Sequence record: OR844767
DNA: 59,207 nucleotides
Reading direction: 5' to 3' (one strand)
DNA from: Escherichia phage ECO111 5-P
Part shown: positions 11,988-20,625 of the stretch, in pieces
How the letters are laid out: every line of letters starts with the position of its first letter
Position numbering within the stretch: the stretch's first letter is position 1
The notes under the pieces: model-generated
What the model saw: the letters and a program-made list of their open reading frames with translations, nothing else
Database searches by the model: none
Told to the model about the DNA's origin: nothing
Program-made: the position numbers and the translations under genes

Positions 11988-12016
11988 TTGACATACGTCG
12001 CGTGTAGAACTATTGT
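11988..12016 (+). promoter_or_regulatory. sigma70-like promoter with embedded palindromic operator (plus-strand class, copy A)
   Basis: TTGACA 11988-11993, 17-bp spacer TACGTCGCGTGTAGAAC, TATTGT 12011-12016; precedes the plus-strand early operon. Confidence 0.5.
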
Positions 12017-12058
12017 TCTCCGAACATAATGATTCACGAACCAACTGGAGCCATCCCA

Positions 12059-12430
12059 ATGAGCAAAGAATTAAGCCCGGCCGAACTGACTGGCGCAATG
12101 ATGACGACCGAGCCGGATGTCGAACTGCCGTCACGCGTGCGCGTGTACAGCGTCGTGGGGAATCTCATTGCGCTGGAAGTCGGTGGCGTTTACACCCTGT
12201 CCCAAGAACTGCCGCTTGACCGTACGCTTTCGCAGGTACAGGACGAGGCCAACGCCCTCAAAGCGAAGATGCGGGCCAGCCTCAATTCCTCCATCCGGAA
12301 TGCCATGAAGCACCACGGCCAACGGTTCAGCATGGAATCGGCGCTGGTGACTTACCCATCTGGCCGCATGTTCATTCAGGCCGTCGTAACCTGTACGGCC
12401 ACCGACGTCGCGGATGACGATGAAGTTTAA
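12059..12430 (+). CDS. hypothetical protein with acidic C-terminal tail
   Basis: ATG 12059 with GGAG RBS, preferred over the track start 12029 which lacks an RBS; ends ...DVADDDEV. Confidence 0.5.
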   Translation: MSKELSPAELTGAMMTTEPDVELPSRVRVYSVVGNLIALEVGGVYTLSQELPLDRTLSQVQDEANALKAKMRASLNSSIRNAMKHHGQRFSMESALVTYPSGRMFIQAVVTCTATDVADDDEV

Positions 12431-12501
12431 AAACGTAGGACGGCACGCCTGAAAAATGGCGTACCACCCTTTTGACCTGACACCCTATAGGACGCACACC
12501 G

Positions 12502-12942
12502 ATGAAAACAACGCACCACCCTATTGAACTGAGTCCGGTACGCGACATTGCCCGTACGGCCTTTATCTATAAGAAGCCCGGCCAAAAAGAGGGCGAGATC
12601 TACATCGAGAAGGACAATGGTGACACCGAGATCACTACCCCCCTGACCCGCGCGGACGCCATCGCATTGATCGCCGGACTGCGTGCCGCCTTCGACCTTC
12701 CGGACGAGAACGCCGAGAAGGTAGAACTGCTACAGCGCCGCCTCGACCAGACCCAAGACCATATCGAAAGCATTTCGCTGGTCACTGCGGCCAACATCAT
12801 GTTCGAGAATGGCCTGCGCACCGCCGTGCTGACGCCGTCCCGTCTGATCACCGGGCAGATGCCTGAACTGGAAATCGACGCGACTCGCCCGGACACCATC
12901 ACCTACCGTCTGAAAGAGGAACCGCTCAATGCAGCCGACTAA
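12502..12942 (+). CDS. hypothetical protein (146 aa)
   Basis: ATG 12502 with AGGA RBS. Confidence 0.5.
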   Translation: MKTTHHPIELSPVRDIARTAFIYKKPGQKEGEIYIEKDNGDTEITTPLTRADAIALIAGLRAAFDLPDENAEKVELLQRRLDQTQDHIESISLVTAANIMFENGLRTAVLTPSRLITGQMPELEIDATRPDTITYRLKEEPLNAAD

Positions 12943-13264
12943 TACCGCGTTGATGGTGAACAACGCCATGCACCCGAAAGGCCGCATCGACGTCGTCCCG
13001 GCGTTCCGCGCTATCGAGCGGATCTACAGCGTGACCATCCATGCCACGCACACCGGGATCAAGGTGTCCTCGGCTACGAATCACCGCGTGACCTTCTATC
13101 AGTCCGGCGACCCGGCCATCGCGAAGCACGGCAAGGCCCGTGGCGCGGACGAATGTGCGGCCATGCGCATGTACATCGTGAAGTTTCTGGATTGGGCCAT
13201 GACGAATATGCCATGCCCGGAAGTGCAGAATGTCGTCGTGGAGGTGGCTGGTGGAAGGCATTGA
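12929..13264 (+). CDS. hypothetical protein (111 aa)
   Basis: ATG 12929 with AAGAGGA RBS; 14-nt overlap with the upstream gene. Confidence 0.4.
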   Translation: MQPTNTALMVNNAMHPKGRIDVVPAFRAIERIYSVTIHATHTGIKVSSATNHRVTFYQSGDPAIAKHGKARGADECAAMRMYIVKFLDWAMTNMPCPEVQNVVVEVAGGRH

Positions 13265-13592
13265 ATTCGTTCGCGTGCAGTACCAAGAACTGCGCAAAGT
13301 CCGGTTAGACCAAATCACCTGCAAACTGTCTGCCCTTGAGACGTTTTTCAAGGACATGGAAGACGACGTGCAGGCCCACAGTACCAAAATGCTCGACCTC
13401 GCCACGCTGGACAACGACGAGGCGGCGTATAACACGGTCAGCGACCAGTACGCTGAATCAATGGCGGGCCTTCGGGCGGCCAAAGAAGCACTACGCGCCG
13501 CGATGTTCCATGCAGCGCAATCCATGTACCACGGAGCACCAGCCAATTTAATTAACGTAGGAGCCATAGAGCATGAAAATCAAGGGTTATGA
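13230..13592 (+). CDS. hypothetical protein (120 aa)
   Basis: ORF overlapping neighbours on both sides; start uncertain. Confidence 0.35.
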   Translation: MSSWRWLVEGIEFVRVQYQELRKVRLDQITCKLSALETFFKDMEDDVQAHSTKMLDLATLDNDEAAYNTVSDQYAESMAGLRAAKEALRAAMFHAAQSMYHGAPANLINVGAIEHENQGL

Positions 13593-19176: not shown

Positions 19177-19371
19177 ATGAAGAAGATCGCTGCGCTAACG
19201 CTGTTTGTATTGATTATCTGCGGTGTGCTGTTTGTCATTGGCCGTGTGGGCGCGGCGATCGGGTGTAACGACGTCAGCGTCCAGACCGAACTACCCACCA
19301 AATACAGCCCGTTAAGCGGCTGCTACATCAAACGAGACGGCCAATGGGAGCCGTTAGACTGGAGACTATGA
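19177..19371 (+). CDS. small membrane protein, hypothetical
   Basis: 64 aa; AAAGGGG RBS; N-terminal transmembrane-like KKIAALTLFVLIICGVLFVIG. Confidence 0.45.
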   Translation: MKKIAALTLFVLIICGVLFVIGRVGAAIGCNDVSVQTELPTKYSPLSGCYIKRDGQWEPLDWRL

Positions 19372-19637
19372 CCGTGTATGACATCGTGATCGTTTATGGC
19401 GAAGGCGCGCCAGAGATTGAGCCGAAGGGGCAGATCGCAATCGCGGAGCATTATGGTGCGAACATCATACGGGGGAACATGGGCGAGTGGCCGTGTCCGC
19501 TGTCATTGCGCGACGAACAGCGTGTGATTTATCTGCAAAAAACGCCGGAGTTTGAATGGGTAGGTCGCATCATAAAGGAAGGCTACACCCCGACTGTTAT
19601 CCACATAGATAATTTGCCAGAAGGACTTTTACCATGA
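19368..19637 (+). CDS. hypothetical protein (89 aa)
   Basis: ATG 19368 overlaps the upstream stop (ATGA); GGAG RBS. Confidence 0.45.
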   Translation: MTVYDIVIVYGEGAPEIEPKGQIAIAEHYGANIIRGNMGEWPCPLSLRDEQRVIYLQKTPEFEWVGRIIKEGYTPTVIHIDNLPEGLLP

Positions 19638-19849
19638 AAATTGCCGCAGGAGACGTTAAGCCGGGCGTACTCGCGACCATCTTTGGCGAGCAGTTCCGCC
19701 TTCGCTATATCACGTATCACAACGTCGGCAGCGTCACGCTGCGCTTCCAGCCGGGCGACGAACCGCTGTCACCGTTCACCGAGAATGACGTGCTGACCAT
19801 GACCGTTCCGCGCACATTCGAAGTCGAGGTGGACAGCGATGGCCGATAG
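19634..19849 (+). CDS. hypothetical protein (71 aa)
   Basis: ATG 19634 overlaps the upstream stop; AAGGA RBS. Confidence 0.45.
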   Translation: MKIAAGDVKPGVLATIFGEQFRLRYITYHNVGSVTLRFQPGDEPLSPFTENDVLTMTVPRTFEVEVDSDGR

Positions 19850-20093
19850 CGAATTAGAACTGAAAGCGGGCCGCACGTATCGCGGAAAACGGCCGCAGAA
19901 CCGAAACGGACTGGTGAACGACCGCACCATCCTGTACATCGGGGCCACGCACCTCCAGTATGACGGCCCGGTCGTAGGCTTTGGCCGACGCTATCCGAGT
20001 TGTACCCGCGAAGCGTTCCTGCAATGGGCCGCGCGCGACGTGACTGACGAATTACCGAAGGGGGAATATGCAGAATGGCCGATAAAAAATTGA
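19839..20093 (+). CDS. hypothetical protein (84 aa)
   Basis: ATG 19839 with GAGGTGG RBS. Confidence 0.45.
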   Translation: MADSELELKAGRTYRGKRPQNRNGLVNDRTILYIGATHLQYDGPVVGFGRRYPSCTREAFLQWAARDVTDELPKGEYAEWPIKN

Positions 20094-20587
20094 GATTCGG
20101 ACACCTCGAAACGGGTGACATGGCGCTGGAGCGTAACAGCATCCGCATCGGTTACAGCCCGGAAGTGACCTTCGCCGTGAAACGCCGCGTAGAGCGCACC
20201 ACGCCGACGCAGATCATCATCGGCAACTCGCGCTACCGGAAGGACGATGGCCGGGCCGTGGGCGAAGCCGGGTGCCTGTTTACCGAGGACGACATCGGTG
20301 AAGGGAAAACCGTCAATATCGAGATCGTAACCGAGGCTGAATTCCGGGAGATCCAGCATCTGTTCTACGAATTCAAGGAAGGCGTGCTGGCCGCGTGCGC
20401 CGGGTACGAAATCACGGCCGCAGACTTGGCCGCCCTGTTCCGCGACCGGGAAGTGCGCGAAGGGGTAGTGGCGCGCTGGTGGAAAACGAAGGAGACGATC
20501 GCCAACCTGCACAAACAGACCCGCGATTTCATGGTCGAGAAGGGCCACGGTGATCGACTGGAGCACGCCCGGAAAAGAAAGTCTTAG
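20075..20587 (+). CDS. hypothetical protein (170 aa)
   Basis: ATG 20075 with GGGGG RBS. Confidence 0.5.
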   Translation: MADKKLRFGHLETGDMALERNSIRIGYSPEVTFAVKRRVERTTPTQIIIGNSRYRKDDGRAVGEAGCLFTEDDIGEGKTVNIEIVTEAEFREIQHLFYEFKEGVLAACAGYEITAADLAALFRDREVREGVVARWWKTKETIANLHKQTRDFMVEKGHGDRLEHARKRKS

Positions 20588-20594
20588 AAACTGT

Positions 20595-20625
20595 TTGACA
20601 CACGTCGCGTGTATAACCTATATTA
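20595..20625 (+). promoter_or_regulatory. sigma70-like promoter with embedded palindromic operator (copy D)
   Basis: TTGACA 20595-20600, spacer CACGTCGCGTGTATAAC containing the perfect palindrome ACACG-TCG-CGTGT, -10 CTATAT/TATATT at 20618-20624. Confidence 0.5.

Follow-up and report, generated by a model that had tools for sequence, protein, structure and literature searches.

A 17-bp dyad in six predicted early promoters and beside cos of a Chi-like phage as the apparent target of one phage-encoded regulator

When several promoters of one phage carry the same symmetrical sequence between their -35 and -10 hexamers, the question arises of whether a protein reads that sequence and, if so, which one. 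The window analyzed here (the whole 59,207-nucleotide stretch of Escherichia phage ECO111 5-P, record OR844767) comes from a Chi-like siphovirus, a Chivirus with 94-97% identity to phage Chi. Chi-like phages (Casjensviridae) have been isolated widely and are under consideration for therapy, and about half of their genes, including nearly the whole early region, have no known function. Phage Chi itself was described as lytic by Hendrix et al. (PMC4342425). No integrase is annotated in the examined parts of the Chi record, and nothing was found in the searchable literature on the element reported here or on the promoters, transcriptomes, or transcription program of Chi-like phages. Our analysis indicates that this element, a 17-bp dyad, looks like the putative binding site of a single phage regulator.

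Six promoters in the window contain the dyad, exactly one copy each:
11988..12016, plus strand: predicted early promoter, TTGACA-17-TATTGT, upstream of the gp62 homologue; dyad at 11991-12007
15303..15331, plus strand: predicted early promoter, TTGACG-17-TAATAT, upstream of the gp55 homologue; dyad at 15306-15322
18565..18593, plus strand: predicted early promoter, TTGACA-17-TAATAT; dyad at 18568-18584 (TACGCGACATGTGT), matching the family consensus
20595..20624, plus strand: predicted early promoter, TTGACA-18-TATATT (or CTATAT with a 17-bp spacer); dyad at 20598-20614
11363..11392, minus strand: predicted leftward early promoter, TTGACG-18-TATTAT; dyad at 11373-11389, with the exact 19-mer ACGCACGCCGCGTATATCA inside
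8964..8993, minus strand: predicted leftward early promoter, driving the gp71-gp75 homologues toward cos; dyad at 8974-8990

All six are sigma-70-type promoters, with a near-consensus -35 hexamer, a -10 element of the form TAnnnT, hexamer matches of 9-11/12, and spacers of 17-18 bp; they look very strong, unaided, for host RNA polymerase, and the operons behind them are probably early. The 18565 and 20595 promoters have a leader hairpin and a U-run downstream. In the annotation of some related records, the gp55 homologue is RdgC or recombination-associated. The preliminary description had placed the four rightward promoters correctly, including their hexamers and 17-bp spacers; these four are real and far above chance, and a generic sigma-70 scan recovers them too. 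Its site list, comprising these promoters and a site near an XRE-family gene, was incomplete, as it missed 8993(-), 11392(-), and a four-copy array at 6770-6968. The proposal that the element gates plus-strand early operons was accordingly too narrow, with two minus-strand operons and the terminal array in the same set. Nor is the 18565 copy really diverged, as had been claimed, since it matches the family-wide consensus YACR-NNN-YRTRTR.

The family motif, ACAYACG-N3-CGTRTGT, was derived from 26 promoters of five genera chosen only by a TTGAC and a -10-like hexamer. In the resulting logo, T16 and T18 are invariant (26/26), followed by A8 (25/26), C9 (23/26), and C14 (22/26); positions 14-20 are mirrored by positions 4-10, and the nearly invariant arms enclose variable positions 11-13. 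In 23-26 of the 26 promoters, the -35 hexamer is preceded at a distance of 4-6 nt by an AAA tract. The register of the dyad is constant: it begins with the final three bases of the -35 hexamer, ends at about -16, and has its center near -24. This fixed register was found together with 17-18-bp spacers at 18 of 18 early-region loci. An inverted repeat, ACACG-TCG-CGTGT, had been proposed as the core of the site; among the copies, only that in the 20595 promoter, the most symmetric one (ACACGTCGCGTGT), is a perfect 5+3+5 palindrome, and the true symmetric unit is larger (17 bp), its left arm overlapping the -35 hexamer. In L027, the symmetry extends to 19 bp. The associated suggestion that the spacer motif resembles the site of a dimeric protein, placed where binding would block RNA polymerase, agrees well with nearly invariant arms around a free center, with the fixed register, and with the existence of promoter-less copies.

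Enrichment depended on the query. With up to 3 mismatches, TTGACRYACGTCGCGTGTA yielded 7 matches in the whole window versus 0.05 expected, and a degenerate version of the motif yielded 13 versus 0.96, whereas the search originally suggested, ACACGNNNCGTGT with up to 1 mismatch, had no power alone (3 matches versus 3.2 expected). Among the 2.9 million viral contigs of IMG/VR, the strict pattern AAANNNTTGACACACGNNNCGTNT was found 10 times out of 10 in Chi-like contigs. A late-region PWM match at 49399 lies inside a 438-aa ORF without a -10 element and is therefore most likely due to chance.

If the spacer were an intrinsic promoter feature, such as flexible or supercoil-sensitive DNA of alternating purines and pyrimidines, or simply the product of promoter-cassette duplication, no protein would be needed to account for it. 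The arms are indeed mostly alternating pyrimidine-purine (CACACG/CGTGTG), and the 8993(-) and 11392(-) promoters, both with TTGACGCACGCCGCGTATATCAT, are identical from the -35 hexamer to about +20, a stretch of more than 45 bp that shows recent duplication or gene conversion. However, the arms stay fixed while the center and flanks drift between genera, indicating selection on the symmetric site and not shared ancestry alone, and the copies at 6770-6968 are kept across genera even though they lack -35 and -10 elements. We consider it highly improbable that the dyad has no binder. An explanation at the RNA level was rejected: Rfam gave no match in the whole window, and transcripts are predicted to start downstream of the dyad.

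The promoter-less copies lie beside the genome end:
6521..6532, no strand assigned: cos, the 12-nt cohesive end, the reverse complement of GGTGCGCAGAGC
6770..6968, plus strand: terminal array of four dyad copies (6770-6788, 6843-6861, 6891-6909, and 6950-6968) with no usable -35 or -10

With cos as the reference point for the genome end, the array can be placed 240-440 bp away from it, in the interval that separates cos from the leftward operon's terminator. All four copies have the same orientation, with start-to-start spacings of 73, 48, and 59 bp (84% identity for the copy at 6843-6861). The terminal array is also kept in Chi, Enc34, and Redjac, so that in these phages, as in the window, the dyad is found and conserved independently of promoter elements. 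The terminal regions of KPN N137 and L027 contain one promoter-less copy each, and the array is not universal, since none is detectable in SAP012.

This arrangement raises the alternative that the dyad primarily serves the genome end, either in replication initiation as an iteron-like site for a gp3-primase complex or in packaging as a cosB-like site, with the promoter copies being secondary or non-regulatory. Consistent with such a role are the conservation of a 3-5-copy array between the last gene's terminator and cos, the translational coupling of gp3 to the primase gene, and the concerted evolution of the array copies with one leftward promoter in FSL SP-030. On the other hand, the spacing is irregular (73/48/59 bp, and about 120 bp in Enc34) and the array has no adjacent AT-rich unwinding region inside it, the nearest AT-rich stretch lying at about 6120-6300, across cos. 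Separate conserved blocks lie much nearer cosN than the 240-440 bp of the array and are better cosB candidates, the array is absent from SAP012, and a register kept so exactly in all six promoters would be difficult to account for unless the dyad acted in transcription. A primary function at the genome end appears quite unlikely. Promoter copies that were secondary in this sense would couple early shut-off to the end process.

Two HTH proteins had been named as candidate regulators. The first is encoded next to a further copy of the motif:
5645..5971, minus strand: XRE/HTH_37 protein, encoded on a swapped, non-conserved module
5990..6006, plus strand: dyad-like site, a doubtful member of the set, about 20 bp upstream of the XRE gene start

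The XRE-proximal site that had been reported does exist (5992-6004, 1 mismatch, PWM 18.7 bits). It is intact, however, in only two of the four phages with the same XRE module, being degraded in Seifer and SP-088, and this poor conservation among relatives makes its membership doubtful despite the high score here. The XRE protein itself has no homologue in Chi, Enc34, Redjac, SAP012, or KPN N137. In Chi, gp1 is a different protein, with no detectable pairwise similarity to XRE and no dyad nearby, and the dyad is present at every other homologous position; in Enc34, the gp1 position has no annotated gene. The link drawn earlier between the XRE gene and the operator set therefore does not stand: a protein absent from Chi and from four other dyad-keeping genera, with a poorly conserved proximal copy, is ruled out as the shared regulator. 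The annotated XRE gene is a tempting mis-assignment and represents a swappable accessory module, not the core regulator.

The second candidate is the better one, being conserved throughout, coupled to the primase, and modeled as an HTH protein:
2737..3018, plus strand: gp3, a 93-aa protein of predicted Cro/CI type (HTH), the best candidate dyad binder

The stop codon of the gp3 gene and the start codon of the primase gene (3015) overlap, in a translationally coupled arrangement, and gp3 was found in every dyad-carrying genome examined. The protein models confidently with a Cro/CI-type HTH fold (AF2, pLDDT 92). Foldseek comparison of the model with the PDB returned 434 repressor, SinR, lambda cI, C.AhdI, and HigA, with weak E-values (0.05-0.4); the match to 434 repressor (1pra) had a TM-score of 0.68 normalised to target length and a probability of 0.84. 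Relatives in BFVD are annotated as Cro or HTH_XRE, including the phage 'Cro' proteins of BcepNazgul (Q6UYG7) and AH2. The gp3 profile gave weak matches to LacI and TetR HTH motifs, and gp3 fell below the Pfam thresholds for HTH_26 (14.4 bits versus a cut-off of 22) and HTH_24 (14.0 versus 21.9). Even at 33-39% identity, Y43 and T45 of the putative recognition helix do not vary, and the dyad persists in L027, where gp3 identity is only 37%.

Other features are less favorable to gp3 as the binder or are neutral. Counting only the 5-bp arms, the half-site centers are about 8-10 bp apart, which counts against an operator for gp3. The gp3 gene has a sigma-70 promoter without a dyad (-35 hexamer at 2668-2673) and faces gp4 across a region also without one, an arrangement that fits the model yet removes the usual clue of autoregulation. 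There is little real covariation between gp3 and the dyad because the arms hardly change across genera. The more distant relative in BcepNazgul (about 20% identity) accompanies a site in which the frame TGACA-N11-TGTCA is kept and the inner bases differ (ARGTTWAAC), with no Chi-type dyad in that phage, a contrast confounded by the change of host, as this is a Burkholderia phage. When two Chivirus gp3 alleles (100% and 86% identity) were compared with dyad variants, only a flank changed (TATAT to TATAC) and not in an allele-specific manner, making the comparison uninformative. The same data would be compatible with any other protein that is conserved, or with an enterobacterial host factor that is.

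Conservation in all five genera extends to at least a dozen early proteins, and one of these of unknown function (e.g., those encoded at 7474-7695, 12059-12430, 14652-14885, or 14866-15165) could bind the operator, which would place the early operons under feedback from their own products. All those screened fall in unknown-function PHROGs, leaving room for such a binder, and the near-constant dyad offers no covariation pointing to gp3 instead. Yet searches of ten conserved small early proteins against PHROGs and Pfam returned only unknown function or DUF7609, no Pfam DNA-binding signature (HTH, RHH, or other) was found in the other universally conserved small early proteins, and among the conserved proteins only gp3 has a DNA-binding fold by modeling. 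No second repressor is conserved across the genera compared. The protein at 9028-9300, whose KPN N137 orthologue is annotated as a 'putative DNA binding protein', was rejected as a DNA binder, as its two hydrophobic segments give it a membrane-like, apparently two-transmembrane character. We regard a different early protein as a rather unlikely binder.

A host (Enterobacterales) transcription factor would make early expression and the genome end responsive to host state. The near-constancy of the dyad in phages of Salmonella, Escherichia, Klebsiella, Providencia, Hafnia/Enterobacter, and Serratia would be expected of such a factor, and the different motif in the Burkholderia phage fits a host-specific factor too. 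The restriction of the strict pattern to the Chi-like family among 2.9 million viral contigs argues otherwise, and no enterobacterial regulator known to us recognizes ACACG-N3-CGTGT or TGACA-N11-TGTCA, which also counts against a host protein. Control by a host factor seems very unlikely.

Collectively, we infer that a protein binds the dyad, that gp3 is the binder, and that binding represses. With moderate confidence, the dyad can be read as the operator of a phage dimeric HTH protein, most probably gp3, that effects a Cro-like early shut-off. In the scenario that we propose, the six strong promoters would be used by host RNA polymerase to drive small genes and recombination genes organized in leftward and rightward operons, while gp3 would be produced with the primase from its own dyad-less promoter. 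As gp3 dimers accumulated, they would occupy the dyads and exclude RNA polymerase, so that the dyad operons would be turned down together in a Cro-like manner, in what has been described as a lytic phage. The promoter-less copies near cos, four in number, would be bound by gp3 too; they might serve gp3 and the primase as an origin-like platform, act as a titration sink, or have a function specific to the genome end. It is conceivable, if unlikely, that one gp3, co-translated with the primase, uses the dyad in two ways, as an early operator and as a chromosome-end platform for the start of replication or another end function; early shut-off would then be mechanically coupled to replication onset in a lytic family. 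The array may instead set a timing threshold by titrating the regulator.

The result is a regulatory map ready for testing, in which six promoters share one operator, with gp3 as the prime candidate for the regulator and an operator array at the genome end. If confirmed, the promoter-operator pair would constitute a compact, strong, and repressible enterobacterial expression module, and the terminal array might show how a lytic siphovirus ties transcription shut-off to replication or to the handling of its genome end.

Among known systems, Cro of lambda, 434, and P22 is a small HTH protein whose operators at OR and OL overlap strong early promoters, and it turns down early transcription in lytic growth. 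The likeness lies in a small protein of Cro/CI fold, here by modeling, and in 14-17-bp pseudo-palindromic operators on strong early promoters. Lambda, however, has three tandem operators and a divergent cI/cro immunity region, whereas here a single dyad marks each of six dispersed promoters on both strands, gp3 lies beside the primase with no CI partner or lysogeny module evident, and an extra promoter-less array adjoins cos. The combination that defines a lambdoid switch, divergent cI/cro with tandem tripartite operators, was not found here. P1 C1 acts at many single, scattered, asymmetric 17-bp operators that overlap different promoters and maintains lysogeny; one regulator controlling several operons through scattered single 17-bp sites is the shared feature, but the present site is a dyad, in a phage that has been described as lytic. 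P22 Arc excludes RNA polymerase by binding a partly symmetric operator between the -35 and -10 of Pant, and a comparable operator within the spacer of a strong promoter, with repression by exclusion, is what we propose here; Arc is a ribbon-helix-helix protein with a single target promoter, in contrast to a modeled HTH protein with a regulon. MerR-family promoters likewise have a dyad in the spacer directly after the -35, but they have over-long spacers of 19-20 bp and are activated by DNA distortion, a mode ruled out here by optimal spacers of 17-18 bp in every instance. The PeSL units of T4-type phages, mobile recombination cassettes of an early promoter and a stem-loop, resemble the repeated early-promoter modules followed by a stable hairpin at P18565 and P20595, although PeSLs are described without an embedded operator and only some of the promoters here have a hairpin. 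Finally, gp71 of the temperate mycobacteriophage L5 blocks elongation in an orientation-dependent manner at 13-bp asymmetric intergenic stoperators, so that its binding site is found both at a promoter and in many places without one, a pattern shared with the window; the stoperators are spread through intergenic regions, whereas the extra copies here are clustered at one genome end.

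A Chi-like siphovirus (Casjensviridae, Chivirus) is represented in the window by its essentially complete genome. The stretch 11500-21000 shares 94-97% identity with many Salmonella phage records, Chi included, and the Chi cohesive end corresponds to window position 6532/6533, the 12-nt end itself occupying 6521-6532. Carrying the Chi annotation across and combining it with the ORF list gave the following gene layout:

From ~2500, leftward: gp4 and all genes downstream, late genes included
2737-5597, rightward: gp3 and primase
5971-5645, minus strand: XRE-type gene
6532: cos
~7073-11299, leftward: two small-gene operons
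~12059 to 23423, rightward: four operons

The plus-strand promoters at 11988, 15303, 18565 and 20595 were exactly as given in the preliminary description, and all four were also recovered by a generic sigma-70 scan. In the window, the long pattern TTGACRYACGTCGCGTGTA had 7 matches (0.05 expected) and its degenerate form 13 (0.96 expected). The short palindrome ACACGNNNCGTGT, proposed earlier as the search motif, was found 3 times with ≤1 mismatch against 3.2 expected; because it is not enriched on its own, that test would have carried no information. From these searches it also emerged that the promoter set was incomplete. Two identical minus-strand promoters, TTGACG-CACGCCGCGTATATCAT-CTATTAT, were located at 8993 and 11392, along with four copies at 6770-6968 that have neither a -35 nor a -10 element. 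The exact 19-mer ACGCACGCCGCGTATATCA is present in three of these four array copies and inside both leftward promoters, whose identity over >45 bp indicates recent duplication or gene conversion.

The leaders of the 8993 and 11392 promoters (8915-8962 and 11314-11361, minus strand) share an identical stretch of ~20 nt containing CCCUUCGGGG, a potential UUCG-tetraloop hairpin; MFE folding drew this hairpin in the 8993 leader only, the 11392 leader preferring a downstream GC-rich hairpin. Transcripts from the 18565 and 20595 promoters (18594-18630 and 20624-20652) would start with a stable hairpin and then a U-run (CUCCCGAAGG...CGGGAG UUUUU; -14.6 and -13.0 kcal/mol, respectively). This hairpin, kept in Enc34, KPN N137, SAP012, Redjac and the related phage L046, could stabilise the mRNA at its 5' end or attenuate transcription close to the promoter, and the promoter and hairpin module resembles PeSL-type promoter/stem-loop cassettes.

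Promoters from phages of four other genera (Enc34, Redjac, SAP012 and KPN N137; gp3 identity, 51-58%) were filtered by TTGAC and a -10-like hexamer only, and nearly all early-region promoters collected in this way carried the same spacer pattern. In a logo of 26 promoters from five genera, numbered from the first T of TTGACA, the left half comprised Y at position 7, A8 (25/26), C9 (23/26) and R at position 10, positions 11-13 were free, and the right half comprised C14 (22/26), T16 and T18 (both 26/26), with R at positions 15, 17 and 19. As positions 14-20 are mirrored by 4-10, the element is a 17-bp dyad, ACAYACG-N3-CGTRTGT, centred near -24 and sharing the ACA of its left arm with the -35 hexamer. 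The 18565 copy, previously considered diverged, matches this family consensus. At 18 further early-region loci the dyad register was constant, with spacers of 17-18 bp throughout; in the distant relative L027 (gp3, 37% identical), TTGACA-CATGCCGCGTGTGT promoters persist and the symmetry reaches 19 bp. All 10 occurrences of the strict pattern AAANNNTTGACACACGNNNCGTNT in IMG/VR were in Chi-like contigs. At a distance of 4-6 nt, the -35 hexamer is preceded by a nearly invariant AAA tract that would fit an UP-element half-site. Combined with -35 hexamers at consensus and spacers of optimal length, this tract gives the promoters the appearance of being very strong and independent of any activator.

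Comparisons of distribution and conservation argue against the XRE protein (5645-5971, minus strand), the regulator first suspected. It has no homologue in Chi, Enc34, Redjac, SAP012 or KPN N137 and was rejected as the shared regulator. At the nucleotide level, window 5636-6162 does not match Chi, and no pairwise similarity was detectable between the XRE protein and Chi gp1, both of which match Pfam HTH_37; Enc34 has no annotated gene at this position. Chi carries the dyad at every other homologous position and none near gp1. Among the four phages with the XRE module of the window, the XRE-proximal dyad is intact in only two, and all four preserve the adjacent GGTTACAA/TTGTAACC repeats perfectly. 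The reading of the spacer dyad as an operator controlled by one regulator is well supported; its link to the XRE protein and its restriction to the plus strand, given the motif at 8993 and 11392, are not.

The gp1 position (5636-6162; 368-906 in Chi) holds interchangeable, highly diverged HTH_37-type genes of two types, that of the window, YSD1 and Seifer versus that of Chi, and is a mosaic accessory module directly adjoining the genome end. At 6029-6290, in the interval from the start of the XRE gene to cos, seven copies of GGTTACAAG/CTTGTAACC (≤1 mismatch) crowd together (whole window, 16 versus 7.9 expected). They are perfectly kept in Seifer, SP-088 and Ariobarzanes while adjacent bases drift, and the corresponding AT-rich stretch of KPN N137 contains repeats of the TTACAAG type. 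They form a second repeat system distinct from the dyad, which might serve as operator for the variable gp1/XRE protein or belong to an origin.

The stronger candidate is gp3 (2737-3018), which is 100% identical in Chi, was found in every examined genome having the dyad and is encoded by a gene translationally coupled to that of primase. In its putative recognition helix, Y43 and T45 are invariant, and L47 nearly so, down to 33% identity. Pfam HTH matches were below threshold, and the gp3 profile weakly matched LacI and TetR HTH motifs in the PDB. A confident AF2 model built from 21 homologues (pLDDT 92; pTM 0.82) matched Cro/CI-type domains (434 repressor, SinR, lambda cI, C.AhdI and HigA) and, beyond these, phage proteins that carry a Cro annotation, some of them from the distantly related Burkholderia phages BcepNazgul and AH2. 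No DNA-binding signature was found in the other universally conserved small early proteins. The 9028-9300 product (minus strand), a small protein shared by all five genera, has a pair of hydrophobic segments and an invariant LYTVAGGVC...WPTQD motif; it resembles a membrane protein and is annotated "putative DNA binding protein" in one relative.

The gp3 promoter is a dyad-less sigma-70 promoter (TTGACA-17-TACTAT, 2668-2696), and the divergent gp4 promoter (both within 2500-2740) likewise lacks the dyad. The leftward gp4 promoter has, around +5 to +16, a block CGTCAACACGAC that most examined relatives share, even the most distant of them (L026-L029), and a ACACGCGCACAT-like conserved block follows the gp3 promoter; each contains a dyad-like half-site (ACACG).

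A PWM restricted to spacer positions 7-20, and so free of -35 information, recovered promoter-less dyads beside cos, four each in the window and Chi, three in Enc34 (~120 bp apart), three to five in Redjac and one each in KPN N137 and L027; it recovered none beside cos in SAP012. The order of last gene, terminator hairpin, dyad array, conserved blocks (CGCTACGGGGGG..., TTCAAAAAGGTACTT) and cosN is kept. Since other conserved blocks are found nearer cosN, the array is unlikely to be the primary terminase site. With irregular spacing and no AT-rich region next to it, it is also uncertain as a classical iteron origin. In FSL SP-030, all four array copies (186-366) and one leftward promoter (4757) carry the same T-to-C change (TATATCA to TATACCA), indicating concerted evolution of dispersed copies. 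Such a conserved putative operator array at the chromosome end is a less usual feature of this candidate regulon.

For Chi-like phages, neither transcript nor promoter data turned up in the searchable literature. The analysis establishes how the element is built, that it is conserved and that it occurs apart from promoters, as well as the distribution and fold of the candidate proteins; that the dyad is bound, that gp3 binds it, the sign of regulation and the "early" timing are inferred. Cro-like shut-off by gp3 is the best-supported mechanism for the candidate operator promoters. Produced from its dyad-less promoter, gp3 would sit as a dimer across -32 to -16 of the six strong promoters, exclude RNA polymerase and lower transcription of the two early-region arms in concert; the same protein would bind the array.

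BcepNazgul, whose gp3 relative is about 20% identical, yielded no Chi-type dyad when searched; its early promoters read TTGACA-ARGTTWAAC...TTGTCA-GATAAT. Its terminal region (80-300) contains repeats, GTGACACGGAGAYACG in 2-3 copies and CTAGCTG in 3, that differ from its promoter-spacer motif and are reminiscent of the Chi-group dyad arm GACACACG. The outer frame TGACA-N11-TGTCA is common to BcepNazgul and the Chi group, whereas the inner bases differ, a contrast that fits a regulator-specific inner half-site and serves as a partial covariation test, confounded by the change of host genus. In kind, the system would be a dispersed-operator phage regulon with a candidate regulator of the Cro/CI fold.
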